Below the pieces are notes generated by a model. That model was not told where the DNA came from. It made no database searches and saw only the letters and a program-made list of their open reading frames with translations. Both the position numbers and the translations under genes were made by a program. From a virus: 64,000 bases of DNA. The stretch is from positions 1-64,000 of the IMG/VR virus record IMGVR_UViG_3300036772_000367. One strand, given 5' to 3'. Positions 3,175 to 62,100 of this stretch are shown in pieces. Within the stretch, counting starts at the first letter, position 1; every line of letters starts with the position of its first letter.

Positions 3175-3183
3175 GAGGTCGAT

Positions 3184-3684: not shown

Positions 3685-3697
3685 GGAGATTGGAATC

Positions 3698-6033: not shown

Positions 6034-6251
6034 TGATCAGTCGGGAGCAGTTCGAGAAGTACGTCGCCCAGGATCTGGAGCGGCTGTTGGGTCCTGCACG
6101 GCCCCATATTACCGAGTTCATGCGGTGGGATATCCATACCGGATATTGGCGACAGTTCCAGGAGGCTGGTATCACCGTGGAAGGAGTGACCGAGCGAACC
6201 TACCAAAAGCTGGCCAGAGCGGCTTCTCTTGATCCCGAAGGGAGGACATGA
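6033..6251 (+). CDS. hypothetical protein
   Basis: TAATG coupling; MISREQFEK. Confidence 0.5.
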   Translation: MISREQFEKYVAQDLERLLGPARPHITEFMRWDIHTGYWRQFQEAGITVEGVTERTYQKLARAASLDPEGRT

Positions 6252-6252
6252 C

Positions 6253-6795
6253 GTGGACCAGAACAGTTACTTCCGCGCGTCGACTGCATTGGCGAAGGAT
6301 CTCCGAGACTTCCAGGCTTGCCGCCGGCAGTACGTGGTCGACCACGTCGATCCCTACCGCGTTGAGTTCCCCCAGAACTCGCCCTGGATGCTTCTGCTCG
6401 AAGAGAAGGTCGTGGGTTTCACTGACGATGCTCCCCACCTACCGCCACCAGCAGGACTGAGTCGGTCGAGCCGACGTGACTATCTGATTCCCCTGACAGG
6501 GAAGATCGGTGCGCGGTGGCGTGAACGATTGGATTTGTTCAACAACAAGTTGCCGAAGTCTTCAGACGTGTGGAAGAAACATGATATTCCGCGAGATGTG
6601 TTGCGTGGCGACTCGATTTACCTCACGCATTACGTCGACTTTGGTCCTGGCAATTTGATTGTCATTACTGGTGGCATATTTGAGCCTATCCCTATCGTGT
6701 TGTCTCCTCTTCGCACCAGCGAGTTCTTCTTGCTGAAGGAGGAGTACGAGGATGCTCATTCTGACTGGCATGAGCAGTTAAGGAATTACCCGTGA
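6253..6795 (+). CDS. hypothetical protein
   Basis: GTG after GGAGG. Confidence 0.6.
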   Translation: MDQNSYFRASTALAKDLRDFQACRRQYVVDHVDPYRVEFPQNSPWMLLLEEKVVGFTDDAPHLPPPAGLSRSSRRDYLIPLTGKIGARWRERLDLFNNKLPKSSDVWKKHDIPRDVLRGDSIYLTHYVDFGPGNLIVITGGIFEPIPIVLSPLRTSEFFLLKEEYEDAHSDWHEQLRNYP

Positions 6796-13135: not shown

Positions 13136-13209
13136 CGCGGAGTGGCGCAACTCGGTAGCGCGCTGGGCTCATAACCCAGAGGTCCCTGGTTCGAATCCAG
13201 GCTCCGCTA
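13136..13209 (+). tRNA. tRNA-fMet(CAT)
   Basis: cloverleaf, C1:U72 mismatch, three G-C pairs in anticodon stem. Confidence 0.93.
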
Positions 13210-13254
13210 CGTAGGATAGATGTGGGTCGGACTTAGGCCGTCAGCATATGATCT

Positions 13255-13273
13255 CTGACAACTCCATGACCAT
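13255..13273 (+). repeat. left arm of 19-bp inverted repeat (boxA-like)
   Basis: CTGACAACTCCATGACCAT is the exact reverse complement of 23743-23761. Confidence 0.9.
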
Positions 13274-13372
13274 TCCCGGTAGTCCGCCAAGCTACTGGGC
13301 TGTGCGGGGCAGTCTCCCCGTGTATCAATCCTTGACGGCCGTCCGTGTCATATAGCGGATCGGACGGCCGAT

Positions 13373-13443
13373 GACGGAGTGGCCGAGAGGCGAGGCGACC
13401 GCCTGCAAAGCGGTGCACACGGGTTCGAATCCCGTCTCTGTCT
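13373..13443 (+). tRNA. tRNA-Cys(GCA)
   Basis: cloverleaf, loop CTGCAAA, U73. Confidence 0.92.
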
Positions 13444-13505
13444 CATAGGCTCCTAGGAGGGCACCAGTTGTCTGGACTGGTGGGAGTGAGGAAAGCCCTC
13501 CGCTT

Positions 13506-13578
13506 GGGGTCGTGGCGCAATTGGTAGCGCGCCTGTCTGGCAGACAGGGGGTTGTGGGTTCAATTCCCACCGATTCCA
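13506..13578 (+). tRNA. tRNA-Ala(GGC)
   Basis: cloverleaf, G3.U70. Confidence 0.92.
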
Positions 13579-13708
13579 CGGCTGATGTTCGACTACGTGC
13601 GCCATGCCTGTAGGCGGAAGACATCAGTGGCCGGCACCAGCCTGCTGCGGCAGGGTGACCCGGCGTCCGGTCTGAGGGCTCCAACATTGTCCTCAGACCG
13701 GACCATAA

Positions 13709-44490: not shown

Positions 44491-45039
44491 ATGAGCATTC
44501 TGCGTGAGGGACGCTTGGCCACCTATATCGGCGAGGGTGATGACTTCGGTGCGCAAGTCGAGGTGCTCTCACTGGAGAACCGCGCGGCGTGGGGGAGATT
44601 CGTGACCGGCGCACGCACCGGAGAGATCGAGCTGATCGAGGACCTCGATCTCACGCCGGCCGAGCCACGCTCACGTTATGCCAGGCTCGACCCTGTTGTG
44701 GTTCCCGTTTCACCCGTGAGCGCCCCTGTGGTGGTCATAGCGGCCCGGGATGACCTGGACGACTCCTTGGACGTTGGGTTGCCCTTGCGGGTGGGTGTAG
44801 CTCAGGTACAGCACACGCAAGGCACTCTGGGTGTACTGACCATGCTGGCCACTCGGGGGGATCTCCAACGGTTGTCCACTGTCGTGGACGAGGCGTTCAT
44901 GGTGGTGGCCAACCGCATCCGCCAGGATCCCAATGTCCGCACCGTCATCGCACAGCTCGACGACGAGGATGCCGAGAACCTGGTGCAGATGGCATCGTTG
45001 ACGTTGTTGCACTCGGCCTTCGGAGAGCAGCGACAGTGA
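44491..45039 (+). CDS. hypothetical structural-region protein
   Basis: ORF in gene array. Confidence 0.65.
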   Translation: MSILREGRLATYIGEGDDFGAQVEVLSLENRAAWGRFVTGARTGEIELIEDLDLTPAEPRSRYARLDPVVVPVSPVSAPVVVIAARDDLDDSLDVGLPLRVGVAQVQHTQGTLGVLTMLATRGDLQRLSTVVDEAFMVVANRIRQDPNVRTVIAQLDDEDAENLVQMASLTLLHSAFGEQRQ

Positions 45040-45710
45040 CGTTGATGCTGCATGTCGCCACGTCAGTCGAGGATCACGTCGACCGACTGGTAGCGGGGAC
45101 CGATCTGGAAGGCAATGAGAGTATGCGTAAGCACATTGCCAAGGTCGTCGCGACTGTGCCTGAGCAGCATCTGGCGACATTGGGCAGCATCTCTATCAAG
45201 CCAGACAAGGACCCTAATACGCGCGGTCGATACCGGAGCCGTGGCTATTCGGCCCGTACCAAGCAACCCGTTCCCGCATCTATCACCTTCACGCCGCATG
45301 TGGTGAACGATGAGAAGGGGTACCACTCAGAGATTCGCGACTCTGAGAAGAAAGGTTGGCTGCGACGGACAGGTTTGCCAGGCGTGCAGGCGACCTTGCA
45401 TCATGAAGTAGGTCATCATCTCTATGATGCTATGAATCAAAAGCAGCATGATGCCATGTGGACTGAGGTTGGGGCACAACCAGAGTTCAAGCCACCCAAT
45501 ACTCGTAGTGCCCAACCCATTGGTCCGCGCTTCATTCGTAGTAATCGATCCAATATGGTCAATCAAGTCGGTGTATATGGCGCATACAATGAACGTGAAG
45601 CTGCATCTGAACTGTATGCGCAGCATCACGGGAAGTATCCCACTGAGGCATCACACATTGCATTTCGCCATATGACGGGAGGGACCGATGAAGATCCCGG
45701 GGCCTCGTGA
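45036..45710 (+). CDS. zincin metallopeptidase (HExxH)
   Basis: TLHHEVGHH...YGAYNEREAASELY. Confidence 0.75.
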   Translation: MTLMLHVATSVEDHVDRLVAGTDLEGNESMRKHIAKVVATVPEQHLATLGSISIKPDKDPNTRGRYRSRGYSARTKQPVPASITFTPHVVNDEKGYHSEIRDSEKKGWLRRTGLPGVQATLHHEVGHHLYDAMNQKQHDAMWTEVGAQPEFKPPNTRSAQPIGPRFIRSNRSNMVNQVGVYGAYNEREAASELYAQHHGKYPTEASHIAFRHMTGGTDEDPGAS

Positions 45711-47877
45711 AGTCGGTGCGGTACTCGCTGGAGTATTGAGCGAACCGCCCTCGCTTGCTCGTGATCGTGCGCTGGCCATCCTGAGTGGAGAGGCACACAC
45801 GGCAGCCACTATCCCAGCCGGTTGGGAAGGCGCGCAGGGACCGTTCCGTAGTGACTACAACGAGCCGCATGTCTACGCTCGTGACATTCATTCCGGCGCC
45901 GGTAACTGTGTCTGCGGTGCTGGATTGCAAGAGCGAGTTCATCTCCAAGCAGCTCCGGGTGTAGAGATACCTGACAGAATGCGCACCACAGCATTCCCTA
46001 CGAGGGAGTGCGATAACTGCGGCGGTAGGATGTCACCTCGGTGGCCACGTACCAGACTCGATGATGGACGAATGGTGTGCCCCATGTGCGCTCAGAACGG
46101 GCCGCGTACCGCTGTGATCATGCCTAAGGAGTGGCTGAATTGGGCACGACAGCCGCGACTCGCGGGCCTCTCTCCTCACGATCGTGAATGGCATCACGGG
46201 TGGGATCTGGGATATGACCACGGTCGTGCCAGCGAGCCAGATCTCAGTGAGAGGGATCGAGCGTTTCACCGCTCGGCGCACAAAGAGCAGTTCTCCCAGG
46301 GATACTCTCATGGACTGCATTCCGGTCTGGATCAGACGACATCTTCGTCCACCACATCCGTGGTCGCCGTGCGGGATGACGGACAACTGCGGGTGCTGGC
46401 TCATGACTCTGGTTCGGTGGAGGTCATCTACCACTGCTTCGCAGGAGAGACGCGCTATCTCACCAAGGAGGGCACGAAGACCTTCGCTGAGACTGCGGGC
46501 ACCGTTCAAGAAGTGTTGACCTCTGCGGGTATTGCCAATGACCGTGGTCGGTGGGCGGAAGCCATCATCCATAGCTTCGGTCCGCAGCCAGTCATGACAG
46601 TGCGACTACGTCGCAACAAGGTTGTTAAAACCATTCGCGCCACACATAACCACGAATGGAACATTTTGGGTCGTAATAAGGCCCATCGTGTGGTGACCAC
46701 TCAGGATCTGAAGCCTGGTATGCGGATGGCCCACCTGCGAGCGCGGGGATACTTCTATGAGCCTGAGCATGAGGCTATTCGCATGGGCTTCGTCTTCGGT
46801 GATGGCGCTATTCTGCAACGTCCCCAACAGACATATGGTGTGGCAGTTCTCTGGGGGCCGAAGCGAGATCTGGCCAAATACTTTGATGAAGTATGTACGA
46901 CCGCCCCCCGGGAACGCACCACGATCAATGATGTACCGGGACTGGCATACACCTCCGGCATGGTGGGCTACACCAAAACACTGCCCCCGTTGACGGCACC
47001 ACTGGAGTACCTGCACGGCTGGTTGATGGGATACTTCGCCGCTGACGGCTCGGTCACTAAGACCAACATCAGCATGACGTCTTCAGTGCTGGAGAACCTT
47101 CAGCACGTGCGGGATGTAGCTATCCTATTGGGTATCGGTACTTATTCCATTACCTCGAAGTGGCGCACTGGGTTTGGTGTGACCTCGCAGATCCACACAC
47201 TCGGTTTTTCGGGTAAGGACATGGGTACGTCATTCTTCTTGCGGCATGACCATCAGGATGCCTACGACCTGCGTGACGAACGAGGCACCAATGACCGTGA
47301 GCGTTTCGGGTGGACAGTCGATGCCATTGAGGACACTGGTGAGGTCACCCCCGTCTACTGCGCTCGCGTACCGGAGACCGGCACCTTCGTGCTGGAAGAC
47401 AACATCTGGACCCGAAACTGTCCCTTCTGTGGTTCTGGTCAGGTGATCGCGCGTTCGGATGGCACTGTCATGTGCGAGTTCTGCAACTCTTCCTTCACCG
47501 TGCAGGTGCAGCCGGAGTTCTCGGCGTTCCCCCAGACCGTCGATGGTCAGCCGGTACAGATTCCTGGTCTGCCACCCGACTCCAACCAGGACGCGGGTGG
47601 TCTGCCTCCTGATGAGGGTGCACCAGGCGACCCCACGGCCGAGGACAACGTGCCGAACGATGCTGAGGAGAACGGCCCGCCCGAGGACGGCGACAACACC
47701 GAGGACGAGCCCATCGACTCCGGCGGCAATCCCTTGTTTAACAAGCACTCCTACCGCACCGCTTCGGGTCATGCCCTGTCCGAACTGGAGTATGTTCGTC
47801 ATCTTGCCTTGAAGATCACTCCCGACCGGAAGAATGTGCTCGCACGTATCCGGTTGGAGAGAGCAGCAGGTGACTGA
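45688..47877 (+). CDS. multi-module zinc-ribbon protein with intein
   Basis: CDNC...CPMC; spliced product gives YH-CPFCGSG...CEFC. Confidence 0.8.
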   Translation: MKIPGPREVGAVLAGVLSEPPSLARDRALAILSGEAHTAATIPAGWEGAQGPFRSDYNEPHVYARDIHSGAGNCVCGAGLQERVHLQAAPGVEIPDRMRTTAFPTRECDNCGGRMSPRWPRTRLDDGRMVCPMCAQNGPRTAVIMPKEWLNWARQPRLAGLSPHDREWHHGWDLGYDHGRASEPDLSERDRAFHRSAHKEQFSQGYSHGLHSGLDQTTSSSTTSVVAVRDDGQLRVLAHDSGSVEVIYHCFAGETRYLTKEGTKTFAETAGTVQEVLTSAGIANDRGRWAEAIIHSFGPQPVMTVRLRRNKVVKTIRATHNHEWNILGRNKAHRVVTTQDLKPGMRMAHLRARGYFYEPEHEAIRMGFVFGDGAILQRPQQTYGVAVLWGPKRDLAKYFDEVCTTAPRERTTINDVPGLAYTSGMVGYTKTLPPLTAPLEYLHGWLMGYFAADGSVTKTNISMTSSVLENLQHVRDVAILLGIGTYSITSKWRTGFGVTSQIHTLGFSGKDMGTSFFLRHDHQDAYDLRDERGTNDRERFGWTVDAIEDTGEVTPVYCARVPETGTFVLEDNIWTRNCPFCGSGQVIARSDGTVMCEFCNSSFTVQVQPEFSAFPQTVDGQPVQIPGLPPDSNQDAGGLPPDEGAPGDPTAEDNVPNDAEENGPPEDGDNTEDEPIDSGGNPLFNKHSYRTASGHALSELEYVRHLALKITPDRKNVLARIRLERAAGD
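46435..47418 (+). mobile_element. intein with LAGLIDADG endonuclease (328 aa)
   Basis: CFAGET block A, ATHNHEW block B, GFVFGDG/GYFAADG, VYC...WTRN-C. Confidence 0.9.
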
Positions 47878-48161
47878 TGTTCGGTGCACACCGTCATGTC
47901 CCGATGATCGACGTGGTCTTCAGCGCACGACCTGATCTGACCGGACAGACCGTCTATCGACACGTGGAGTACAACAACACGGCGGTGGTGTTCGGGAGTT
48001 GGGTGAACCGTCCAGATGGCACTGTGGCGTTCCGGTTCTGGCCGGCGGATTTCCGGCCGGTGGGGTGGCGGGACCGGGTGTGGATGTGGTGGACCGGTTC
48101 ACCCACACCACGTGGCAGATGGGCCTATCCGATCAAGCCTGAACCACCACGGGAGGAATGA
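47877..48161 (+). CDS. hypothetical protein
   Basis: TGATG coupling. Confidence 0.5.
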   Translation: MFGAHRHVPMIDVVFSARPDLTGQTVYRHVEYNNTAVVFGSWVNRPDGTVAFRFWPADFRPVGWRDRVWMWWTGSPTPRGRWAYPIKPEPPREE

Positions 48162-48164
48162 TCT

Positions 48165-51100
48165 GTGACCGACCCAGGATTTCAGGTCAATGACCGACGT
48201 CGCACCACGAGGACGTCGGGCCTTGTCGTGGGCGGCTCCGTGGACGACGCCAAGGAATATGCCCGTCGCATGGGTCGGATGCCGCGCGAGGGCGTCACCT
48301 ACACCGGCATGGGTGATACCAACCCCTACTCACGCCAGTTCTCCCGCAACCGCTCCGAGGAGCAGGTTGTCGAGGAGATGCGCCTGAACCGGCGGGTCGC
48401 CTCACGTCGTACCGCGACGGCTGGTGGGACCACTGGGATTCCTGGTGGCGGGATGGCAGGGAATAACGTCAGCTTCGCTACGGGTCGACCACGTGACCCG
48501 ATGTTTTACTGGCGGCAATCGAACATTCCTTATGACGTCACCAAAGACGACGAGCTCAAGAAGATTCGTGAGTTTTGCAATACGCCAGAAGCTCCGATCT
48601 GGATGGGCGACTATTCATTCAAGCCCATCAGTGAGGTGCAGTCGGGTGATGAGGTAATTGGTTGGCAGTACAACACTGGTCCGAGTGGTGGTCAGCGTAA
48701 GAAGCTTGTGCGTACCAAGGTGCTCGCTGTGAAGCGTCGCGTCGCACCCCAGGTCGTGCGTATCACGATGGAGTCAGGCAAGGTCATTCGTTGTACCCCC
48801 GATCATCAGTGGGCGAATTACTCGTACTCACCCACTCAGAGGGAGGTACTCGATCGTCGTATCATGAAGGCGACGGGACAACCGCGCAATAAGCCGATTG
48901 CGTGGAAACAACCTGAGTACAGGGCTGCACAAGTGGGCGGTTATCTCACGTCTTTCATTGAACCCACGCCCGAGTTGACGGATGACAAGCAACGCATGGC
49001 TGCCATGTGGCTAGCGGGATTGTATGACGGCGAAGGCTGCGGCAATGAGCTAGGACAAAGCGCGACCCACAATCCAGCAGTATGTCAGCGTATCAAGGAT
49101 TCATTGGAAACACTGGGTCTGCCGTGGACTCAACAACCGAATGCTATCTACATTCGAGAAGCTGGACAAGGATATCGTTGGGGTGCACACCAGGATATGG
49201 TGAACTTCCTCAACTGGACTGAGCCGACCCGCAAGACCACCAAGCAGAATGATGCTGCGATCCTGGTGCGCCCTAGTGGTGGCAAGGACCGTGTCGTGTC
49301 CATCGAGTCCGAGGGCCCTGGTGAAGTCGTCTCCATGCAGACGGAGACGGGCAATTACGTGGCATGGGGCTATGCCTCAAAGAACTGTAGACTGTTATAC
49401 CTGACTCACCCGGTGATCGCGGCGTGTACCGACATCTTCACCAAGTTTCCATTGCAAGGCATGGAGCTGGAATGCAAGGACGACCAGCTCAAGGATTTCT
49501 ACGAGACATTGTTTTTCGACCAACTCGACTACCCCAACTACCTGAAGGACCTGGGCCGCGAGTACTGGTTGGTCGGTGAGGCATGGCCACTCGGGTCGTT
49601 CAACGAGATCCTGGGTGTCTGGGAGGACGAGGAGCTTCTCAATCCCGATGACGTTCAGGTGGAACGGTCACCGTTCTTGCGCGACCCGCGCTTCCTGATC
49701 AAGCTGCCGGAGACGCTGCGGCGTGTGCTGCAACAGCGCTCGCCTGCGTGGGAATACGACAAGCTGATGAGGGCGTACCCCGAGCTGGCTGCCTATGCCG
49801 GGGACGATGCTCTGATGCCAGTGAGCAACATCCTGCTGAAGCAGTTGCGTTTCAAGGGCGACACGTTCCACAAGCGCGGCATTCCTATCCTCATGCGCGG
49901 CTTTCGGGCCATCGTGCAGGAAGAGATGCTGAACACCGCGCTGGATGCCATCGCCGACCGCTTGTATACCCCGCTGATCCTGGCCAAGTTGGGTGCATCC
50001 GCTACAGACCTGGGTACCGACATGCCCTGGGTGCCCACCCAGCTCGACCTGGAGAACTTCGAAGAGGCTGTCGATGCCGCCCTGGCCGGAGACTTCCGGG
50101 TCATCACCCATCACTTCGCCACCGACATGGCGCCCGTTTTCGGTCGAGAGAACATGCCTGACCTCTCTGCCGACTTCGATCGCGTGCTTGATCGCATCCT
50201 CATGGTATATGGCATTTCTCGCACGATGCTCAACGGCGCAGAACAAGGCGAAACCTATGCGGCCGACGCTCTGAATCGGGATATGGTCAGCCAGACTCTG
50301 GCTGACTACCAGGCTCTGATCAAGGACTTCTTCCGTGATCGCGCCCTGGTAGTAGCCGAAGCACAGGAACATTTTGACTATGACGTACGCGGTGGCAAGC
50401 GCTACGTGAAGATGGAAGAAGTCATTGTTCCGGACGAGGAAACCGGCGAAGAGAAAATCATCGAACAGCCAGCCCTGTTGGTGCCCGAGCTGACGTTCAA
50501 GACCATGACTCTGGCCGATCAGCAAGAGGAACGCCAGTTCATGGAGGCATTGAACCAAGCAGGCGTGCCGGTGCCCTACACGCGGCGGCTCACGGGAACC
50601 GGTTTGGACTTCGACGACATCATTGAGCAGCGGCAGTCCGAACAGGTCGCGTTGGCCGTGGCCGAGCAGGAGACGCGCCGGGAGACCTTCAAGGCCCTGC
50701 GTGATGCTGGGCTGCCTATCCCCGCCGACCTGGCGCAGGACTTCCAGCCGAAGTCCATCCCAGCTGGACAGCCAGCGATGCCCGAGGCGCTGCCTGGCCA
50801 GGATGCGGCCATCCCCACGTTGGGTGCCCTACCTCCCGATCTGCCGGCCCTGGCGCCCAGCATGGAGGATCAACAGCAGACCGACGAGGAAGACGCCAGT
50901 GGGCCACCTGGGGCGGCGAATCCACTAGGCCAGGTCATCATGATGCCGAATGCCAACATGCCCCAGCCGGGAGACCAACGGCCGCCGGAGTCCGACGAAC
51001 AGCGTGGCCGGATGCCTAAGCCCGCGAAGCGCAAGGATGAGCTGGATCCCTACGATCAGTTCCGCGCGCGGCATTTCGGTCAGGTGAAGCAGGCAGCGCG

Positions 51101-51251
51101 AGAGTATTTCACAGCGCCTGACAATTCCGAAGAAGTCTCGCCCTCGCAGTACTATCCTTCGGGGAGGTTCGGCGATCCGCGTCATATCGGAATGCGTGCC
51201 TATGTGGATGTGCCCGAGGAATATCGTGTGCCAGACGAAGACGCATCGTGA
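48165..51251 (+). CDS. portal protein with intein
   Basis: F-CRLLYLTHPVIAACTDIFTKFP; AIADRLYTPLILAKLG; position in head module. Confidence 0.8.
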   Translation: MTDPGFQVNDRRRTTRTSGLVVGGSVDDAKEYARRMGRMPREGVTYTGMGDTNPYSRQFSRNRSEEQVVEEMRLNRRVASRRTATAGGTTGIPGGGMAGNNVSFATGRPRDPMFYWRQSNIPYDVTKDDELKKIREFCNTPEAPIWMGDYSFKPISEVQSGDEVIGWQYNTGPSGGQRKKLVRTKVLAVKRRVAPQVVRITMESGKVIRCTPDHQWANYSYSPTQREVLDRRIMKATGQPRNKPIAWKQPEYRAAQVGGYLTSFIEPTPELTDDKQRMAAMWLAGLYDGEGCGNELGQSATHNPAVCQRIKDSLETLGLPWTQQPNAIYIREAGQGYRWGAHQDMVNFLNWTEPTRKTTKQNDAAILVRPSGGKDRVVSIESEGPGEVVSMQTETGNYVAWGYASKNCRLLYLTHPVIAACTDIFTKFPLQGMELECKDDQLKDFYETLFFDQLDYPNYLKDLGREYWLVGEAWPLGSFNEILGVWEDEELLNPDDVQVERSPFLRDPRFLIKLPETLRRVLQQRSPAWEYDKLMRAYPELAAYAGDDALMPVSNILLKQLRFKGDTFHKRGIPILMRGFRAIVQEEMLNTALDAIADRLYTPLILAKLGASATDLGTDMPWVPTQLDLENFEEAVDAALAGDFRVITHHFATDMAPVFGRENMPDLSADFDRVLDRILMVYGISRTMLNGAEQGETYAADALNRDMVSQTLADYQALIKDFFRDRALVVAEAQEHFDYDVRGGKRYVKMEEVIVPDEETGEEKIIEQPALLVPELTFKTMTLADQQEERQFMEALNQAGVPVPYTRRLTGTGLDFDDIIEQRQSEQVALAVAEQETRRETFKALRDAGLPIPADLAQDFQPKSIPAGQPAMPEALPGQDAAIPTLGALPPDLPALAPSMEDQQQTDEEDASGPPGAANPLGQVIMMPNANMPQPGDQRPPESDEQRGRMPKPAKRKDELDPYDQFRARHFGQVKQAAREYFTAPDNSEEVSPSQYYPSGRFGDPRHIGMRAYVDVPEEYRVPDEDAS
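48576..49385 (+). mobile_element. intein with LAGLIDADG-like domain (270 aa)
   Basis: CNTPEAPI, RCTPDHQW, WLAGLYDGEG, TETGNYVAWGYASKN-C. Confidence 0.9.
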
Positions 51252-51260
51252 GGATATGAC

Positions 51261-51635
51261 ATGTCGCATTTGGTGAAGACCTTGGTTAAAGGACTGGAGT
51301 TGCCGGATGGCAACCTCTATCCCAATATCAATACGACGGTGACGCTTACCGATGAGCAGTTCGCCACTCTCAACGCCAGTGACTTTGTGTCCGACCTACA
51401 AGACCTTGGTGTGGCTTTCACCGCTATCACGGTCACTGCCTCCCCCTTCACCTATACCGTGGCGGCCTCGGGTACTCTCCTGATTAATCCCAGCGGAGCA
51501 ACGATCTCGGCGTTGACCTGGAACACACTCACGGTGCCCCCTGCCACTGCCCTGCTTCCTGTGTTGGCCAACGATGTACTGGTCGTGACTTACACAGGTG
51601 GCACTCCGTTGATGAACATTCGTAATCAGAGCTGA
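51261..51635 (+). CDS. virion structural protein
   Basis: Thr-rich; N-terminus paralogous to next gene. Confidence 0.7.
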   Translation: MSHLVKTLVKGLELPDGNLYPNINTTVTLTDEQFATLNASDFVSDLQDLGVAFTAITVTASPFTYTVAASGTLLINPSGATISALTWNTLTVPPATALLPVLANDVLVVTYTGGTPLMNIRNQS

Positions 51636-51637
51636 GC

Positions 51638-52069
51638 ATGGCACATATTGTCAAGACGTTGGTTCCCGGTATTTCGCTGACGGACGGTAAGTTTTATCCG
51701 TCGGCGAATGCTGTAGTCACTCTGACGGACGCTCAGTATGCGCAATTGTCGCCGAGCGTATTCTACGACAACATCTTGTTGGATTTGGGTACCGGTACGA
51801 CCGTCAGCACGGTACCAGTTGGTCTTCCAACGACATCAACGCAGGGTTCAGGAACACTATCTACTGGCAACGTGGCGGCAGCGGGGACCGTAGTGACCCC
51901 CATGACACAATGGACGATGGTGCATAATCTGGGGTTTTATCCAGCAGCGTTGTGCTGTCTCGATACGCAAGGAAATATCATGTGGCCCAGCTCAATCGAC
52001 TGGCCAGATCTCAACACGATGACGGCTGGTTGGTCACAGCTAGAATCTGGTTCGTGGAAGGTGTCCTGA
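51638..52069 (+). CDS. virion structural protein
   Basis: paralogous N-terminus; WTMVHNLGFYP module. Confidence 0.7.
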   Translation: MAHIVKTLVPGISLTDGKFYPSANAVVTLTDAQYAQLSPSVFYDNILLDLGTGTTVSTVPVGLPTTSTQGSGTLSTGNVAAAGTVVTPMTQWTMVHNLGFYPAALCCLDTQGNIMWPSSIDWPDLNTMTAGWSQLESGSWKVS

Positions 52070-52070
52070 C

Positions 52071-53180
52071 ATGATGAAGTTTGATGGACCAGTCAACTAC
52101 AATAATCAGAGTCTAGTGCAGGCTTTGGCTGAACTATTGTCGGTAGATCCGTCCACGCCCATAGAGGGCCGCTTCTGGTACGACACGACGAACCACTTGT
52201 ACAAGTGGTTCAACGGTTCGACGAATATCAACCCGCTGGCTCGTACGAGTCACTCGGGGACGCAGACGTCGGCGACGATCTCGGATCTGGCTGCCGTGGT
52301 GCAAGCGTACCGGCTATCTCAGTTCGCCGCGCCGAACGCCAGCGTGCCGATGGGTGCGCAACAGTTCTCCGGGCTGGCCACTGCCAACGCATCCGGGCAG
52401 GCAGTGGAGTACGCCCAGTTCCAGACGGCGCTCGCTGCTGTCCAGTCAGGGATGGACTTCAAGCAGCACGTCAGCATCATCGCGTTGGCGAACGTAACGA
52501 CATCGAGCCCCGGCGCCACGATCAACGGTCGGACGATGGTGGCCGGCGATCGTGTACTGCTGGCAGCGCAGACGACGACGTCTCAGAACGGCCTGTGGAC
52601 GTGGAGCGGTGCCGCCAGTGCGCTCACACGGCCCGCTGACGCCCCGACAGGTGCGACGGCTGCCGTGGTGGCCGGCACGATCGTGGAGGGCTACAACGCC
52701 ACGGTCAGGACTCTGTACATGCAGACGTCTCTGGGAACCGGTACGAACGGCGCGATCGTGGTGGACACGGATGCGCAGACGTGGACGCAGCCGTTCACCG
52801 GCACCACATATACGGCGGGCAACGGTCTGCAATTGATCGGATCAGTGTTCTCGGCACTGTTGCAGTCCGGCTCGCTGCTGTTGTCATCGGGATCCGGACT
52901 GGCGGTGGACAGTTCGAAGGTCCTTCAAAAGGTAACCGGAGTTGTGCCGACAGCCACGTCAGGAATCTTCACGATCTCGGGTAGCACGGTGACGATCAAT
53001 CACGGTCTGAACAACCAGGATGCTGATTTGTCATTGCGGTTCGGCAGTTCGCCGGGCGCAGGAAACACGACCGGTTCCAAATTGTATGTCGATCACGCAC
53101 CGGTCGACGCGAACAATTTGACGTTCACCTTGTCCGCTGCTCCGGCTGCGAACCAGTATCGCGTGATGGTCAGCGGCTGA
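52071..53180 (+). CDS. fibre-like structural protein
   Basis: GDRVLLAAQTTTSQNGLW, YTAGNGL, TINHGL. Confidence 0.72.
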   Translation: MMKFDGPVNYNNQSLVQALAELLSVDPSTPIEGRFWYDTTNHLYKWFNGSTNINPLARTSHSGTQTSATISDLAAVVQAYRLSQFAAPNASVPMGAQQFSGLATANASGQAVEYAQFQTALAAVQSGMDFKQHVSIIALANVTTSSPGATINGRTMVAGDRVLLAAQTTTSQNGLWTWSGAASALTRPADAPTGATAAVVAGTIVEGYNATVRTLYMQTSLGTGTNGAIVVDTDAQTWTQPFTGTTYTAGNGLQLIGSVFSALLQSGSLLLSSGSGLAVDSSKVLQKVTGVVPTATSGIFTISGSTVTINHGLNNQDADLSLRFGSSPGAGNTTGSKLYVDHAPVDANNLTFTLSAAPAANQYRVMVSG

Positions 53181-55387
53181 TGGGTGGCCCTTTGTGGCGG
53201 CAACCTGTGCGGTTGGACGCTGATCCCACCGCCTTGTCCTCGATCGCGACGAAGAACTATACGGATGGCCTGGGTGCCAGATGGGTGCCGGTCGCCGGTC
53301 GAGCGACAGTGGCGAATGAGAACACCAATTTCGCCAATGCAGGTTTGCAGTGGGCTACAGCCGCCCGGTACGGCCGCACGGTGCATCGGGTGATGGTGGG
53401 TGGCGCGAAGCAGATCCGACTGGAGTACGCGAACTGGGGCTGCCAGAACGGTGACTCGACCGCCGCTGTGGGCGGAACGTTGTCGTTGAGCGCGCGACCA
53501 TTTGAGGTGGCAAACCCCAATTCGGTGCAGTTTCGGGCGTCGATCGAGTATCCGGCGGGTGTATGGCGACAGACGGCTGGCAGCACGGCGTGGTCTTCGG
53601 CGACCGCCTATGCGATCGGGGACCAGGTCACCTCCAATGGCTCGACGTGGGTGTCGATCCAGGCCGGCACGAATCAGACCCCGGCCAGTGGTTCGGTTTT
53701 CTGGCAACAGTCACTGCGATACCTGGTGCACTGGGATGGCGAGGACACGACTCGCGCGGTGATATGTGCGGGTGGGACGATGGTGCAGTCGGTGCCGATA
53801 GCCGTTCCCACATTGCGATCCGGCACCTATCTTGCGGTGAACTCGATGGTGCTGACGGGATCAGCAACGAACAAGTTCACGGTTGGTGACATCTCCCGGT
53901 CGAAGGACTTCGCAGTCGACTACGCCACAACACCGCCGACCGCTGGTTCCGCGACAGACCCGGTTGATTCGGGGGTGACGACACAGACCTCGGCAACAGC
54001 CGGCACGCCAATCCCGATGCCGTTGATGGTGTCGGGGATCGCGTCGTCCAACACGGCGGTCGCGGTGATTGGTGACTCGATCGTGTACGGCTTGCAAGAC
54101 ACCGACACGGCGTGGGGTTTCCAGCGCGGTTATGCGGCGGCGGCGATGGAGGACACTCAGACATCCTGGCTGCGGGCTGCACAGTCTGGTTCGGAGGCAA
54201 GCCAGTATTTACCAGCGAATTCACCACTGCGGCTGTCGGTGATCAGTCGGTGTACGGCGGCATTCGTGAATCTCGGGGTCAACGACATCACTGACCAAGC
54301 CGGTGTGACGGCTACGGTGCAGGCGAATCTGGTGGCCTTGTGGACGGCGCTGGATCAGCTCGGCTTGCAAGTATGGCAGTCCACGATCATGCCTTCTACC
54401 ACGTCGACTGATAGTTGGGCCACCAAAGCGAACCAGACAGTGCAGGGCGCATTCGACACGAGCCGACAGGCGATTAACTCGTGGCTGCGTACCGGGGCGA
54501 CCTGGACGATCCTGGGGCAGTCCATTTCGATGGGTAACCCATTGCATCCACTGACCGGTGTGGTGGATCTGTCCTTGTGGACGGAAGACCCTACCGATTC
54601 GTCGCGGTGGCTATCGAATGGCACCGCGAGCTACTGGACGTTGGACGGTACGCATCCGTCCCCGGCGGCGTATGCATCGCTGGCCAGCCAGTTGATGCTC
54701 TTCGTGCGAAAGATGGCGTCCCTAGGCAGCCCCTACCCGTTTGCTGGGGCCCAGGTGGATGCGGTGCCAGCGCTGTTCTTCAACGGCCTGGTGTCTCTAG
54801 GTGGTGCGCAAGACGGATTCGTCTACGGTGACCTGCTGTCGTCGATGCCCCGCAAGGACGCCATATCGATGCTGGACACGGCGAAGTCGGGGAACTCGAA
54901 CGTGCTGACGACGCAGGCAGCCTCCACCACGAGGACGTACTACACCTGGTTGGGGACGCCGGGGATTCCACAAAAGGTGTCGACCATCAAGATTTGTCTG
55001 GGTTCGACGACATCGGCGTCAGCAACCAATGCCACGGCAGTCACGGTGGGTCTCTATGTGGGTCCATCGAATGTATCTCTGACCCAGGTTGCGACGGGGA
55101 CGGTCAGCACTCCGACGACAACCGGCGAAAAAGATGTGGCGTTGTCGAACTCGGTCACCATCAAGAATGGCCAGTACGCAGTGGTGATGGTGGCGGTCAC
55201 CCTCGGTGTGACGGCAGGTCAGGTGCTGTGCGCGAATGTCGCCGGATCCACTTTTGCTGGTGTCGCTACTCCAGCCGGACAGACCAGCTCCGGCTATGCG
55301 TTGCCGTCCGGTGCACTGCCGACTGGCACAATCAGTCTGGGTGGCTATCAACCCTTGCAGCAGAAGTTCTGGGCGGCACTCGCATAG
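53180..55387 (+). CDS. SGNH/GDSL hydrolase with CBM5/12-like module, probable receptor-binding protein
   Basis: AWSSATAYAIGDQV...W; IGDSI, GVND, DGTHP. Confidence 0.82.
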   Translation: MGGPLWRQPVRLDADPTALSSIATKNYTDGLGARWVPVAGRATVANENTNFANAGLQWATAARYGRTVHRVMVGGAKQIRLEYANWGCQNGDSTAAVGGTLSLSARPFEVANPNSVQFRASIEYPAGVWRQTAGSTAWSSATAYAIGDQVTSNGSTWVSIQAGTNQTPASGSVFWQQSLRYLVHWDGEDTTRAVICAGGTMVQSVPIAVPTLRSGTYLAVNSMVLTGSATNKFTVGDISRSKDFAVDYATTPPTAGSATDPVDSGVTTQTSATAGTPIPMPLMVSGIASSNTAVAVIGDSIVYGLQDTDTAWGFQRGYAAAAMEDTQTSWLRAAQSGSEASQYLPANSPLRLSVISRCTAAFVNLGVNDITDQAGVTATVQANLVALWTALDQLGLQVWQSTIMPSTTSTDSWATKANQTVQGAFDTSRQAINSWLRTGATWTILGQSISMGNPLHPLTGVVDLSLWTEDPTDSSRWLSNGTASYWTLDGTHPSPAAYASLASQLMLFVRKMASLGSPYPFAGAQVDAVPALFFNGLVSLGGAQDGFVYGDLLSSMPRKDAISMLDTAKSGNSNVLTTQAASTTRTYYTWLGTPGIPQKVSTIKICLGSTTSASATNATAVTVGLYVGPSNVSLTQVATGTVSTPTTTGEKDVALSNSVTIKNGQYAVVMVAVTLGVTAGQVLCANVAGSTFAGVATPAGQTSSGYALPSGALPTGTISLGGYQPLQQKFWAALA

Positions 55388-55444
55388 CTGTTCTGTCCTG
55401 CGTGGCGCAGAGAGCGCCTCTGGTAAGGAGTGAAGGAGGCAATC

Positions 55445-55978
55445 ATGGGGCTGGGATATCGTCACGCAAGTTTGCACGAAACAATGGCAGTACGCAGGCT
55501 AGCCATGGATACGTCGGTCTTCCACGTGTTCAAGGAAGGCCAGCAGGTGATGACCATTGACGGTGTGCCCGGCACCGTGACGGCCGTGCAGGATGGTCCG
55601 GTCGCGGGCAACGAGAACTACGACGTCACCCTGATCAATGGTCTGGGCGGCGGTCAGTACACGGCCAGCCAGCTCACCTCGATGGGTACTCCTACGGTGG
55701 CCTCGGAACACCACCTGGCGTCGGATGACTACGAGGAGCTGCGAGACATCCTCGTACAACGTCCTCCGATCGAACGAGAAGCTACGGCAGGGCGTCCCAA
55801 CGAGGATGAGCCGCATGACTCTACGTCTCTGACGGATCCCTTCGCCTGGGCGCCGGACGAGGAGGACTTCCAGGCCCCCGATCTGTCTCGGCAGCTTCCT
55901 CAAGGCGGCTACCACCAGCCCAACTCAGGTCCGGTACAGATGCCTGCCTACGTCGATCCGGAATGGAAGAATCACTAA
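55445..55978 (+). CDS. head-module protein
   Basis: AAGGAGG RBS; GQQVMTIDGVPG...GGGQY. Confidence 0.7.
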   Translation: MGLGYRHASLHETMAVRRLAMDTSVFHVFKEGQQVMTIDGVPGTVTAVQDGPVAGNENYDVTLINGLGGGQYTASQLTSMGTPTVASEHHLASDDYEELRDILVQRPPIEREATAGRPNEDEPHDSTSLTDPFAWAPDEEDFQAPDLSRQLPQGGYHQPNSGPVQMPAYVDPEWKNH

Positions 55979-56184
55979 TGAAGTATTGGTCATCCTTTAC
56001 GACCAATCAGCTTCATGAGGGTCGCATAGGATATGAAGCATATGGCGCCTATACAAATATGAAGACTTTCGACGGCCGCGACATGCCTCCGTGGGACAAG
56101 TTGCCTGATCGGACGCAGAATGCCTGGACAACCGCTGCGCAGGCACTCAAAGAGCAGTTCGCTCCCGACCCGGTAGACGAGTAG
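55978..56184 (+). CDS. small phage protein
   Basis: TAATG coupling; YEAYG...MPPWDKLP...AW. Confidence 0.6.
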   Translation: MKYWSSFTTNQLHEGRIGYEAYGAYTNMKTFDGRDMPPWDKLPDRTQNAWTTAAQALKEQFAPDPVDE

Positions 56185-56186
56185 GA

Positions 56187-59100
56187 GTGGTTGTGTGGCA
56201 TCCGTCCGATCGGCTCTACGCCACCGCTGAGGTCGCTGAGGGCGATCGCAACCCCAGCGGGGTGAAGCCGTTGACCTCGGATCTGCCCGAGCAACAGTTC
56301 GAGGGTGATGGCGGGCCGCCACCGTGCCCCTACTGTGGCCACCCCGAGTTCAAGGAGTTGCCGTCCAACGGCCGGGCCGATCGCGCCCAATGTGCCCAGT
56401 GTGGTGGCATGGTCTACTCGGTCAACGGCAGTCAGTGGCAACCTGAGCTGATCGGTGATCCTTCCAATCACCCCTCCAGCGCAGCGGACCCCGCGTCCGG
56501 TGGTGTGGGTGGTGCGGCGAACTCCGAGGTCCTGATGAACCAGGGACCTGTGCGGACGCACGACGATTCTCAGCTCCGCAACTCGTTGAGTTCACTGGTG
56601 AAGACGGCCGACGATGATCAGTGTCCGCGTTGCTCCGGCGACATGACCGACACAGCGCCGGATCGTTGCTTGGACTGTGGCTATACCCAACCGACTCGTG
56701 TCTCGGACAATCCTCCGCAACATTCTGGACAACGTGTCGCCCTACTGCATACCGCATTGTCCTGGGATGAGATTGGGGATCGGCATCCCCACGTCTACGG
56801 CGACTCCGAGATCCATGGGGATGCCGCTGACGGGGCAGATGGCCCAGGCATCGGATCGGCCGCCAATTACCTAGCCCACGAGACACCAGAGGATCCGGAT
56901 GGGGAAGGGCACTCCGAACACGAGCTGGAGTTCCGCGCGAGGACGGTGCACCCGCGCCACATCGACTACAGCCCCAGCGGTTCGGATGACTACCGGGTGA
57001 AGCGCGCCCGTGAGGGCTATCAGACCCAGCCGGAGATGATGCCGCCGCTGGTGTTGGTCAAGCGCCACAACGTATATCAGGTGGCCGATGGTCACCACCG
57101 GGCCGAGGCCGCTGCTTCGCTGAACCAGCCGGTGCGGGCCTACATCGCGGACTCTCCCTATCCCGATACACCTTTCCGGGACGGCGAGATCGGTCCCTTC
57201 CACCACGCCGAGCCGATCGAGGCCGAACACCACACGGCAGCGAAACCACGACCAAGCAAGAGCTTTCCCAATGGAAAGCGTCACGGCATCGAGATTACTG
57301 ACGGTGCCTACCCAGACGAGTCAGGCATTGTTCAGTGTGACAACTGCGGTAAATACCACTCTGCTACGTACGACCATGAAGGCCAGCACCACGAGGGGCC
57401 CATCCATGCGGTGACGTGCCCGCAGGATGGCATGACCGACTACTACACCAACGAGCGCCTGGAGCCACGCGAGGCGGCACTGAACGATGAGGTTCCCTGG
57501 TGTGCGCACCTTTACCACGGCAACTGCACCTATCCCGGTGACAAGCTGCCCAACGGCACCATCCTGGGCATCCCGCAGGATCGTGGTCCGTGCCCATGGA
57601 AGCACTCGGCGTTCCAGCAGGCCGCGTGTCCCATCTCAGCGCCAGGACCGATGGCTGTCATGACGGTGACAGCCGAGTCGCATACTGCTGATGGCGACTA
57701 TCGAATGCAGCACCAAGCGCCCGATGCCGACTACGGGGCCCCGCTGCATGATGTCGAAGAGATGATGCCCGACTTCTATACGCACCCGCATTACTACAAC
57801 ACTGGTCAGGAACATTTCTGGGATTCCGCTAACAAGATCATAAAGGCGCGCGGGAACCCAGAGAAGAAGGTTCAGATCTATCGGTCGCTGCCGGCCGACT
57901 ACGCGCACGAAGGTTTCCACACGGGCGATTGGGTCACCACATCGAAGGACTATGCCCGTGAGCATGGTAAGGCCACTGAGGACAAAGGATCAGAGCACGA
58001 CTGGCCGATCATCTCCACCAGGGTGCCAGCGAAGCACCTGCACACCGAGGGAGACGTCCACGAGTGGGCCTACAACGGCCCGGAGAAGCCCTTCGGCCAC
58101 ACGGTGAGCTTCCCGGGCGGTCGTGAGCAACAGATCCGGCAGCGTGCCGATGGCACCGTGCAACGGGTCAAGCATCGTCCTGTCGACCCGTTGAATGCCC
58201 AAGGGTACAGCTTCAGTCATCACATGCTGAACGAGAACTCGGATAACCCGGCGCATCAAGTGACGGCGTATGGCCCCGACGAGAACTATGCGGGGCACCA
58301 CCGAGTCGATGCGCAGGGCACCGTCGAGTCCCACGTCGAGCCCGAACATGAGCATATGGCAGATCCGCTGCGTGAGCGGATGGCCAATGAAGTCACCAAG
58401 CGCATGGCGTCACTGCATGTTGGTATCGAGGAAATGCAGCGGATTGCCATTTTTGACGGGGAAGAACAGTGGCATCTCACTGCGGTGACCGCTGGTGCGC
58501 ACGACAGCGATACAGAAATGAAGGGCTTCGGTCTCGATCCCCTGCATGAGGACGATGACTACGCCACTCTGCATCACAAATTCTCGCAGCACTATCGCAT
58601 TCTCGATCATGTTTATGCCAGCGGCAACGAAGCGCATCCAGACGACGTGGATGCTGCTGATGCCATTGATCGGCATCATCGTGACCATGATGTCCCGCCC
58701 ATCACGGATTCCACCTACGGTGATGCGCTACCGCATCAGATGGCGTCGGTGGCTGCCCAAATGATGGTCAACAAGCGTGCAGATCACAGAAGACTCGATC
58801 ATCCTACTGTGACCATGGAGCGAATTCCAGCGAAAGATCATGCGTCTGGGGATTTCAAACAAGGCAGTGTACTGGGTGACTATCAACACGACATCTCACA
58901 CATTCGGTTGGATCCTTATGTTTTGGCCAATGCTGAGATCAACCGCGAAGAGCACGCACCTCAGTCTGATGCACGTGGCTGGCACGTACCTGCTGGAAAT
59001 GCCAATCCGTGGCAGACCACTATCTCTCACGAGGGTGGGCACCACAGGGAAATGAGCCTGACGTCACAGCAACGTGCTTCTATGTTTCGCGACATTTCCC

Positions 59101-62100
59101 ATACTATTCCTGGAGTGACTCCATACACGGAGAAGCGGGCTACTGAACACGGATTGAATAAATGGCATAACGCGAACTATGCCCACCTCATCAATCACGT
59201 CGGGACGTATGCCGCAAAGAATTACCGCGAACTTGCAGCTGAGTTGTATTCTGAACATAGACATGCCGACAATCCATCGCTTGCTGCTCAGACAGCGGGC
59301 CGTCATCTGGAGGGGCGATTTGACGACGATAACAATGAACAGCGCGGATTTGCAGGAGAGTTTGGCGAAGCTAGTTCATATGGAGCCCAGCGCCGAACGG
59401 GATCAGGCCATCGCGAAGGTCATCTCACAGTTGGAGGAGTGCAGGCAGAAGGGTCTCTAACTTTCTGCACTGATACTGAGGAAATGCAGCGGGTCGCCGC
59501 GCTCGACAAAGAGGGACAGTGGCATCTGACGGCGTCCTGGGCAGACGTCAAGGACAAGGCGAAGCTGATCCGCGCGGGTGGTGGTGTCCGTATCGCCGTG
59601 GCATCGATGGATGGCATTGGCGGAGAAGTCCAGGGTGAGCACCATGTCTACGAGACACTGCTGACCTTCGTGCCCGGCTCGTACAAAGTGGGTTCCTGGC
59701 AGTGCGGCTGCAAGTGGGCTGCCTATGCTTGGGGCCGCTCGCCAGCGTATCGACGGTTCGAAGGCCGGATGTGCTCCCATGCCCTGGCCATGCAGTACGA
59801 GGCCCAGGCCCGAGGGATGTTCGGCCGCACTGTCCAGGAGGACCGGGAGCGTCCACACTGGCTCAAGCCGCACTCGCCGGTCGTAGTGCAGTACGAGCGA
59901 CCGAGTGAGAAGCACCCGCAGGGCATCGACCTGACGCGTCGTGCGGTGCCGCCGGGCAACATGCGCACGACGTTCGGGTCCAAGGAGGCAGCGATGGAAC
60001 CAGCACAACTGATCGCGCTGGCCGTGCTGACGATGTGCGACCACGATCCGGTGCGTGCCATCCCCTCCCTGGGGCTGTACGGCTTCGACCACCGCACTGC
60101 GCAACTGTTGATCAAGCAGGCGACCGAACACGAGGACGCGGAAAGTCTGAGCGTGCCGCCGTTGCGCTTGGAGCAGCTGCACCCCGAACCGATGCGGTCT
60201 ACTGCGTCGAAGCGATGCCCTGAGTGCAGTGCCTCGGTTTCCAGCAGTGCGCTGACGTGCCCCGAGTGCGGTGCGAACCTTGCCGATGTTCCCGAACTCC
60301 ATGAGGCTTCATGGCAGGACGAGGAGCAGCGCTGTCCGCACTGTGGTGGCTACCTGGGCCCGACCGCGTTCAAGGCGGGGCGCTGCCCGCACTGCGGCCA
60401 TGCACTGTCGCACCGGGAAGGTGCCTACGAGCCGGGCCTGCACAACACGCAGGATGCCCGGATGAACACCGAGGCCCCTGACTGGGGCACAGACCACCTC
60501 GTGCCCTGCGACCAGTGTCGTGGACAAGGCTGCGGTCACTGCGGCGGCACGGGCAACGTGGTGCAGATGAACGGGGTCACTGGCTCGCCTGTGCCTGACC
60601 AGTCCGAGGGTGCCGGCGACGTCATGCGTCAGGACGGCTTGGCGTGGGGTGATCCCATCTCGATGGGTGCCGTGTTGGCAGCACATGAAGATGACCCAAC
60701 TTACTTGCGCTTTGGCTCGTGGCCGAAGGACGAGCGATCGCGAAACAATATCACGGGGTTCCCTGAAGAAGGCGTGAGCGTCTACGATCTCGACCACCGT
60801 GGTGAGCCGAAGGATCCGGACGCCAACTTTGGTCGCTTGCATGAGCACCACGAGCATTGTGATCCGGACTGCGATTTGGACTCGTGGAACGAGGACTACG
60901 GTAACGACACCCTGGAGGAAATGCGGGGACGAGTGCATCGTGCCGAGAGGACTCGCTACAACGGCAACGAGAACCACAGCGATACCGGACATCTGGTCAA
61001 GGGCGAGATGGCGGGCATTGGCCATGACGGCGAGCCGCTGCTGAAGAATGTGCGCCGAGTCGGCGACTGGATCGATCATCGCCATCTGTTTTTCCCGCAG
61101 GCGGAGAGGCACCGACTGGCTCGTGATCCCTATGACGAGGACTACGAAGAGCCCAAGCTGAACAAACGTAGCGCAAAGAAGCAGGAGAGCCACGCGCCTT
61201 CGGTCGCGGGCGTGGCGCTCAAGGCGGCCGACACGGGTCGAGTACTGATGCTGCAACGTGGCCTAGAGGACAAGAAGGATCCTGCTGCTGGTACGTGGGA
61301 ATTCCCCGGCGGCCACATTGAGCCGGGCGACAAGACGTCTCTGCATGGTGCGATGCGGGAGTGGGAAGAGGAAGTCGGTCAACCGTTCCCGGACGGTGGT
61401 GTGGTCCACCACGTCTGGACGTCGCCGAATGGTGTCTACCAGGGTCACGTCGTGGTGATCCCCGCCGAGCGTGACCTGACGATGCACGACGGCCGCGTGA
61501 TGACCAATCCTGATGATCCACATGGTGATCATGCCGAGCAGGCTGCCTGGTGGCAGGTCGAGCACGCACGCAAGAACCCCGCACTGCGGCCCGAGGTGAA
61601 GCAGAATACGCCATGGAAGCAGCTTGCCAACGCAGGAATGCAGAAGGAAGCTGACTACGCCGCGAATGATGCACTCAGTGGCGGCGGTCCCGAGGTGCAC
61701 ACGCCTACCGACGCACCGCAGCACTCTAACTCCACAAACCCGGCCAGCACCGGCTACGCGACGTCCTGGGATCCGAACGGGTGGAACGGCGAGGAACCCT
61801 TCGGCGGTCGTGATGACGTGCCCATGGCGGGCTACTCGGCATCCTTGGCACCCATCATCGAACCCCGATACTCCTACCAGCCGCCGCAGGCCGTAGCGAG
61901 TGTCCTGGGCCAATGGGGGCAGGGACAGACACCCGTGGTGTTCGAGCGTGCCGCCAGGACGCTGGCCACTCTGCACGACGAGCCAGAACCTGCGCTGCCC
62001 TCCACCGATGGTGGTGACGAGCGCATGAAGCCGATCAACCACCTGCATCACGGCATCCCACACAATGACCAGGGCACAATGCCGTACGGCTATGACGATC

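Follow-up and report, generated by a model that had tools for sequence, protein, structure and literature searches.

What does it mean when a phage carries the same peptidase twice, each time with a second reading frame starting in the enzyme's last codons? The question is raised by the first 64 kb (positions 1 to 64,000; the window hereafter) of the virus record IMGVR_UViG_3300036772_000367 from IMG/VR, 155,226 bp long and rated complete. Here a putative HExxH metallopeptidase occurs once as a free protein (P0001) and once as a domain embedded in a giant polyvalent virion protein (P0003). The open reading frame (ORF) that follows the free peptidase is a long partner gene, and the one that follows the embedded peptidase is a short frame nested inside the polyvalent gene. 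An initial annotation, made without database searches, had taken both as copies of one mobile cassette of an enzyme and its cognate inhibitor or chaperone. We ask here whether the nested frame is a gene at all, how it came to lie inside another gene and what its product might do. From its conservation among relatives we are highly confident that the nested ORF is a genuine, selected protein-coding gene, and we think it probable that it belongs to a conserved two-gene module of actinophage head/ejection proteins, in which a peptidase is coupled to a helical hairpin ORF acting as a cap/inhibitor or a tether.

Two copies of a zincin-like peptidase

The two peptidases had been read as paralogues, and the comparison bears this out: P0001 and residues 906–1048 of the polyvalent protein (nucleotides (nt) ~58902–59333) are 31% identical over 143 amino acids (aa), with a BLASTP E of 6e-14. 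A whole-genome search found only these two copies in the 155-kb genome. Both contain the HExxH motif, as HEVGH at residues 123–127 of P0001 and as HEGGH at residues 948–952 of the polyvalent protein, and its H, E and H are invariant in 17/17 family members. Equally invariant among the 17 members are the two Glu of an E-x3-E motif ~65 residues 3′ of HExxH, which is helical in the structural model and offers a candidate third zinc ligand.

The AlphaFold2 (AF2) model of the embedded peptidase, with a predicted local distance difference test (pLDDT) score of 79, has strands at 75–78, 98–101 and 106–109, followed by HExxH on a helix at 142–157. When it was searched against representative structures, the best matches were anthrax lethal factor (Z 8.1, root-mean-square deviation 6.2, 185 residues aligned), PPEP-3 (Z 7.5) and PPEP-2 (Z 6.8); the matches listed are overwhelmingly zincin-fold metallohydrolases, mostly peptidases, and the Z values are modest. 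As modelled, the peptidase has a zincin fold. Foldseek with the same model returned nothing below E 0.2, Pfam-A held no family at E ≤0.1 for P0001 or for the peptidase segment of P0003, PHROGs held none for either copy, and a sequence search of the PDB gave no match below E 0.16, only noise around HExxH.

In a tree of 27 peptidase domains, the embedded copy groups with that of a related locus, L009 (support 95/91; we give such loci L numbers), and the free copy groups with that of L003 inside a separate clade (98/99). The two therefore belong to different subclades and are old paralogues. That copy 2 arose from copy 1 by a recent duplication within the genome was considered, and the tree rules it out.

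A small helical frame at both junctions

The codons that end the peptidase domain had been proposed to contain a ribosome-binding site for the next frame, and they do so at both copies. In copy 1, the Shine–Dalgarno (SD) sequence GGGAGGGA ends 3 nt 5′ of ATG 45688, and in copy 2 GGAGGGG ends 4 nt 5′ of TTG 59320; both small frames are +1 relative to their peptidase. A purine-rich SD occupies the same site in all free-peptidase orthologues, and one of the GGAG/GGA type is found 5–12 nt 5′ of the start in 17/17 family members. The arrangement is also as first described: in copy 1 the peptidase is free and the helix is fused to a 729-aa protein, and in copy 2 the peptidase lies within the polyvalent ORF, which reads through the small ORF. 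The latter, 59320–59460, is complete, with a start codon and an SD of its own, and falls entirely within 56187–62555.

The similarity claimed for the two helices is seen by profile searches and not by pairwise BLASTP, in which the 93-aa alternative-frame ORF gave nothing against the partner (best E 2.4). Profiles from other phages were therefore used, in searches that covered all six frames of the 155-kb genome. A hidden Markov model (HMM) of the partner N-termini of four other phages ranked the true partner first (E 1.3e-13) and ORF 59320–59460 second genome-wide (E 0.033; next match 1.2). An HMM of six small ORFs or N-termini, none of them from the window, gave a full-length match to 59320–59460 (E 1.2e-6; next 1.9). 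Profile searches and neighbourhood analysis had been suggested as the check on the cassette, and by both the small-ORF similarity is significant and the ORF is tied to peptidases in other phages. These matches indicate that ORF 59320–59460 is no chance shadow ORF. Chance similarity among the small ORFs was weighed as an explanation and is ruled out by the second of the two genome-wide matches together with recurrence in other loci.

The AF2 model of the nested product (pLDDT 78) consists of helices at 8–19 and 25–44, and the small protein is acidic in most members. Neither Pfam nor PHROGs holds a family for it, and an ESM Atlas look-up of the small protein of L010 scored 0.80, which is chance level.

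Free, fused and nested layouts among relatives

The free peptidase has eight orthologues in public assemblies, 47–100% identical, with the same gene order in all. In the four distinct contigs that were read (L003/L004, L005, L006/L007 and L008), the next gene overlaps the peptidase by 23–29 nt and opens with the conserved helix. At greater distance, a profile search of 1.84 billion representative proteins found 1645 representatives of the peptidase family at E ≤0.001, in most of which the peptidase is the C-terminal domain of a 400–900-aa protein. These more distant relatives came from alignment-based scans of viral contigs; single-sequence scans with either peptidase found none. A metagenome scan added one locus only, in the same record as L006, and when 50,697 isolated phage records were searched by blastn and tblastn, neither the free locus nor the embedded module was matched.

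The small frame occurs in these relatives in three layouts. First, it is nested. A +1 ORF of 44–48 codons with ATG and SD stands at the same place in L011, L016/L017, L040, L014, L037, L038 and L039, its ATG directly after conserved 'HL[E/D]G' codons, and wherever the peptidase lies inside a long polyvalent ORF with readable DNA, the small ORF is found in the nested frame. In L009, it lies at 13518–13655 (E 2.8e-14 in a six-frame HMM search), 5′ of the peptidase module; the nested layout is thus represented by the window and eight further loci, with L016/L017 counted once. Within the 2731-aa polyvalent gene of L009, in the stretch 13200–13660, the nested ORF comes after a GNAT-like domain ('QRKGLAT' motif) and before the peptidase module, so that the order of the pair is reversed. 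Second, the small frame is free-standing in L010 (5389–5547, 52 codons) and L021 (4450–4581, 43 codons), in each case overlapping the stop of the peptidase ORF, with ATGA as the stop/start overlap in L021. Third, it forms the N-terminus of larger proteins, namely the window gene at 45688 and its orthologues, a 363-aa protein in L019 and, twice, proteins of L041. Six homologues of the small protein, of 43–52 aa, are on record as called genes in public data.

The L041 locus (2063–6269) holds three tandem genes after the portal, each ending in a peptidase domain of the family; the second and third (P0041 and P0057) have the hairpin at their start. Stop and start codons overlap where the genes of the array meet. 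The array looks like a tandem amplification of a hairpin-X-peptidase unit.

Peptidase and small frame keep company over considerable divergence. The small ORFs are 28–42% identical to the window copy and the adjoining peptidase domains 27–45%, that is, about equally conserved. In the 27-domain tree, 20 domains make up a single helix-linked group (support 94/90); a helix ORF is adjacent to 19 of these 20 and to none of the seven in the sister group, in line with the claim that the two move as a unit. That the unit moves among head proteins agrees with its free, fused and nested forms and with its different places in different polyvalent proteins. L009 is without the free peptidase, and its partner orthologue starts at the Zn ribbon, without the hairpin region.

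The seven sister-group domains are followed by other genes, several of them for a Cys-rich protein with an 'FPxGIP' motif. In more distant MuF-peptidase loci (L012/L013, L023, L024, L026–L028, L032 and L033), a different overlapping gene in the +2 frame comes just after the peptidase ORF and encodes a small Cys-rich protein with the motif C..C...C.[AS]FP.GIP, possibly another type of partner for these enzymes.

Selection on the nested frame

A frame that is used should be visible in how both readings change, and several measures agree in this respect. First of all, ten small ORFs align without internal gaps, and what the main frame reads as linker shows no indels over 43 codons. For the eight ORFs that lie on the 3′ side of their peptidase, the nested reading gives an amino-acid identity of 0.54 and the main reading one of 0.41. 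Second, main-frame synonymous differences, counted over identical-residue codons, are suppressed in the overlap: between L011 and L016 they amount to 2/41 there vs 192/706 elsewhere (Fisher p 4e-4), and the overlap is the lowest 46-codon synonymous window in the gene. The main-frame synonymous rate is lower in the overlap in 10/10 pairs tested, most sequence pairs being saturated. Third, GC content over the overlap follows the codon positions of the nested frame (high, low, highest) in 9/9 genes. Main-frame GC at third positions (GC3) is 0.30–0.43 in the overlap vs 0.64–0.87 gene-wide, and for main-frame GC3 minus GC2 (second positions) no other 44-codon window is as low in any of the nine genes. 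The main-frame peptide over the overlap is a G/A/R-rich linker, 80–93% small or polar and 2–16% hydrophobic. Finally, codon resampling gave z 18 for the nested frame and z 7.4 for the main frame, a test that ignores shared ancestry and serves as support only.

Because conservation, synonymous suppression, GC phase, the gap-free linker and the kept start signals all point the same way, we read the alignments as evidence of purifying selection on the nested frame across relatives.

Origin of the embedded copy

The embedded module differs from its surroundings. Its GC content is 52–55% (58485–59470) vs 60–66% in the flanks, and it is flanked by 64-nt direct repeats that are 73% identical and spaced 1050 nt apart, with the stop of the nested ORF 10 nt 5′ of the right repeat. 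The repeat motif is single-copy in five other polyvalent loci (L011, L016, L040 and the L037–L039 group), always before the SWIM-like module, and was not detected in L009 or L014. The position of the peptidase module relative to the other modules differs between phages.

The simplest history has three steps: a cassette of peptidase and small gene would have been imported and joined in frame into the polyvalent gene; one crossover would have taken place within the shared repeat motif; and the peptidase stop would have been lost, so that the giant ORF came to read through the small gene as a G/A/R-rich linker. We judge the small gene to be the older reading and the main-frame linker the overprint, because free-standing homologues exist and because the GC phase follows the small gene.

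A proposed peptidase–hairpin module and its alternatives

The module as proposed has two parts. The first is the zincin-like metallopeptidase domain, usually C-terminal in MuF-like or polyvalent virion proteins. The second is an ORF, probably coupled to it in translation, that starts in the last peptidase codons, with its ribosome-binding site in the conserved LEG/TGG codons; its first ~45 residues are predicted to fold into a helical hairpin. In copy 1, the 729-aa Zn-ribbon protein that is encoded next, shortly before the portal, carries the hairpin at its N-terminus. In copy 2, the small gene is intact in the +1 frame, and ribosomes most likely make its product by initiating internally at TTG 59320. 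The hairpin would then bind the neighbouring peptidase, binding being the common denominator that we infer for the free, fused and nested forms: until packaging of the polyvalent protein, the free 46-aa protein would keep the peptidase capped or inhibited inside the producing cell, and the N-terminal hairpin would tether the free peptidase to a head protein.

These statements differ in strength. We consider it fairly probable that the small product acts physically on the peptidase beside it. Among roles for the small protein, a peptidase-binding inhibitor or cap appears the most likely, and the 46-aa form fits this reading; small ORFs that follow MuF toxins, proposed to confer immunity, are comparable. 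That it is specifically an inhibitor we propose only tentatively.

Several points weigh against this account. The main frame keeps more similarity than a by-product of the nested frame would, which is expected from shared ancestry; the linker is therefore not wholly free. The window copy starts with TTG and all its relatives with ATG. L011, L016, L017 and L040 are close relatives, so that the independent lineages number ~7, not 11. The order in L009 shows that the pairing is one of adjacency and not always of the same order, and the L041 peptidase P0057 has no hairpin gene after it. A pure inhibitor role, moreover, leaves the frequent fusion of the hairpin to large unrelated proteins unexplained.

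It is this last point that a different reading takes up, one that survives better than the other alternatives and that we still regard as unlikely: the hairpin would be a docking or packaging tag that binds the peptidase or a head component such as the portal or scaffold and takes its carrier protein into the capsid, or a leader cut off in maturation, with the free 46-aa form regulating that interaction or acting as its decoy. Such a tag would suit the N-terminal position of the hairpin in four or more larger proteins unrelated to one another (the window partner with its orthologues, the 363-aa protein of L019, and P0041 and P0057 of L041), as well as a free peptidase without a MuF or polyvalent carrier and a partner gene near the portal gene. 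An [H/R]-x-A-[A/S] motif also recurs after the hairpin, at residues 36–44, as a candidate processing site; it is not, however, seen in L019 or L041, and tags without cargo, which the 43–52-aa free and nested forms would be, are hard to explain. The sites lie at 45790–45810 in the window, with equivalents in L003, L005, L006 and L008, and could be maturation cleavage sites that release a ~40-aa peptide, the size of the free small proteins.

The nested ORF of the window might instead be a frozen relic, a gene-junction remnant that was copied with the peptidase and is no longer translated, leaving the polyvalent linker as the sole product. The same length and start have been kept in ~7 embedded lineages whose peptidase domains are only 30–45% identical, and this, together with the suppressed main-frame synonymous sites, a GC phase that follows the nested frame, a 43-codon 'linker' without indels and a strong SD kept 4 nt 5′ of the TTG, makes a relic very improbable, even if the lower-GC insert may be a fairly recent import, TTG replaces the family ATG, and alternative frames are often open in GC-rich DNA (the probability of an open frame given the main protein is 0.2 in the window and 0.5–0.97 at the other loci). 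A programmed +1 frameshift near 59320 would yield a shortened polyvalent protein that ends in the hairpin after the peptidase, and no separate protein. It is geometrically possible, since the +1 frame stays open upstream of the start over 9 to 107 codons at the different loci, and it would put the hairpin in cis to the peptidase. We can hardly credit it, however, when 17/17 family members have a start codon at the first aligned position with an SD before it, when L010 and L021 carry their homologues as ordinary genes apart from the peptidase ORF (with the ATGA overlap in L021), and when, in the junction sequences that were read, a conserved slippery site was not noticed.

Gene order and other features of the window

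The portal of the window phage is ~40% identical to the portals of cluster C mycobacteriophages such as Pio and BeanWater, which makes the phage a large myovirus-like actinophage. Genes on the + strand stand in the order of a 182-aa gene, the free peptidase, the 729-aa partner, a 94-aa gene, the portal, a head-decoration protein, a GDSL esterase, two small genes and the 2122-aa polyvalent gene; coordinates of the features discussed are collected in Table 1.

Table 1. Positions of the peptidase, hairpin and neighbouring features in the window (nt)
Feature	Position	Strand	Basis
Free zincin-like peptidase gene P0001 (224 aa; HEVGH at nt 45402–45416)	45036..45710	+	ORF, translation, orthologues
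Shine–Dalgarno GGGAGGGA of the partner gene, within the last peptidase codons ('TGG' of RHMTGG)	45677..45684	+	Sequence
Partner gene, 729 aa, +1 frame, 23-nt overlap with the peptidase	45688..47877	+	ORF, HMM
Helix module, first ~40 residues of the partner	45688–45805	+	Conserved N-terminus in L003, L005, L006, L008
Portal, 1028 aa	48165–51251	+	PHROG match
Polyvalent virion protein gene, 2122 aa (P0003)	56187..62555	+	Pfam and PHROG matches, homologues
64-nt direct repeat, left copy; codes for the motif with which the SWIM module normally begins	58421..58484	+	Repeat search
Inserted peptidase module; HEGGH at 59028–59042, zincin core ~58824–59336	58485..59470	+	Composition, BLASTP paralogy, AF2
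Shine–Dalgarno GGAGGGG of the nested gene, in the conserved 'LEG' codons that end the peptidase domain	59309..59315	+	Sequence
Nested +1-frame gene, TTG start, 46 codons and stop, predicted two-helix protein	59320..59460	+	HMM, homologues, codon-position GC, AF2
64-nt direct repeat, right copy; the SWIM-like module natively begins here	59471..59534	+	Repeat search, motif survey

By Pfam and PHROG matches, the polyvalent protein has ParB-like, SWIM-like, Zn-ribbon and NUDIX parts beside its zincin module, and it has homologues in L009 and L037–L040. Its residues ~498–635 (57680–58090) match PHROG 2579, 'ParB C-terminal domain' (E 1.8e-35); this stretch holds an R...[ST]TS pattern that recalls ADP-ribosyltransferase motifs, and L009 has two copies of it, flanking the peptidase module.

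In the partner, the helix module is followed by a Zn ribbon, a LAGLIDADG intein (~46435–47418), a second Zn ribbon and an acidic tail. The intein matches Pfam LAGLIDADG_3 (E 4e-6) and sits just 5′ of the first Cys in a CPFC...CEFC Zn ribbon; the partner orthologues of L003 (426 aa) and L009 (313 aa) are without the insert, and that of L006 (698 aa) has one. The portal is 1028 aa long in the window vs 745 aa in L009, its residues ~139–407 having no L009 counterpart and being skipped by the PHROG portal match; they are probably a second intein or another insert.

Implications

The nested ORF would be a conserved protein-coding gene beyond the reach of gene callers, inside the best-known class of phage 'weapon' proteins. 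The locus also suggests a route to nesting, in which an ordinary two-gene cassette with a start/stop overlap is captured in frame; the small gene is therefore the older reading and the linker the overprint, the reverse of usual overprinting. For zincin peptidases in polyvalent and MuF proteins, where both function and control are so far only predicted, the hairpin protein furthermore offers a candidate regulator. In more general terms, polyvalent proteins might grow by in-frame capture of cassettes of enzyme and guardian, with linkers that hide cognate regulators in the +1 frame, a generalization about which we have more doubt than confidence. If true and general, the 'floppy linkers' of polyvalent proteins would be a hidden layer of small genes that silence dangerous cargo enzymes in the producing cell, and the window would be the clearest case, with all three states of one family among close relatives. 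Routine screening of polyvalent-protein linkers for second-frame genes is suggested by these results.

Comparison with known systems

Zincin peptidases are the commonest domain of polyvalent proteins and have been proposed to process these proteins or to act as effectors (PMC5512222). The metallopeptidase (MPTase) domains described there (Iyer, Burroughs, Anand, de Souza and Aravind 2017) share with the peptidases reported here the HExxH helix and a downstream Glu, a C-terminal or internal place in giant virion proteins with ParB-like, SWIM, NUDIX and GNAT domains, and a distant likeness to anthrax lethal factor, detected by HHpred in that study and by structural comparison here. That paper, on the other hand, mentions no overlapping or nested partner ORF such as the small one found here. 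Among curated peptidase families, neither window copy has a Pfam family at E 0.1.

A second comparison is with MuF toxins, in which a metallopeptidase is present in 20% and a small downstream ORF follows in 89% (Jamet et al. 2017, PMC5576092). L010 and L021 are similar in having the peptidase at the C-terminus of a head protein near the portal, with a weak MuF match, and in having an ORF of 43–52 aa directly after the peptidase, like a MuF toxin and immunity pair. Against a cut-off of 29.6 bits, Phage_Mu_F reaches 23.9 in L010 and 18.7 in L012, and it has no match in the window's own proteins. Unlike in the MuF systems of that study, the small ORF is here also fused to the next protein or nested out of frame. 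By analogy, the 46-aa free protein resembles the immunity protein of a MuF polymorphic toxin.

Finally, the nested arrangement has a counterpart in Rz1 within Rz, the lambda spanin genes (PMC5295617, PMC6139136), where a complete small gene with its own SD and start likewise lies in the +1 frame of the same strand and the products of the two genes work together (PMC5295617, PMC6139136). The proteins and the process are unrelated, lysis there and virion cargo here, and in our case it is the small gene that is the older reading and the linker of the large gene that is the overprint.

In the literature library searched, we found no published description that joins polyvalent proteins with embedded or overlapping genes. 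Genes nested in the +1 frame, polyvalent proteins with zincin domains and MuF toxins followed by a small ORF are already known, each in its own setting; what is new here is that the free, fused and nested states of one family are all visible, together with the event by which a cassette appears to have been captured.

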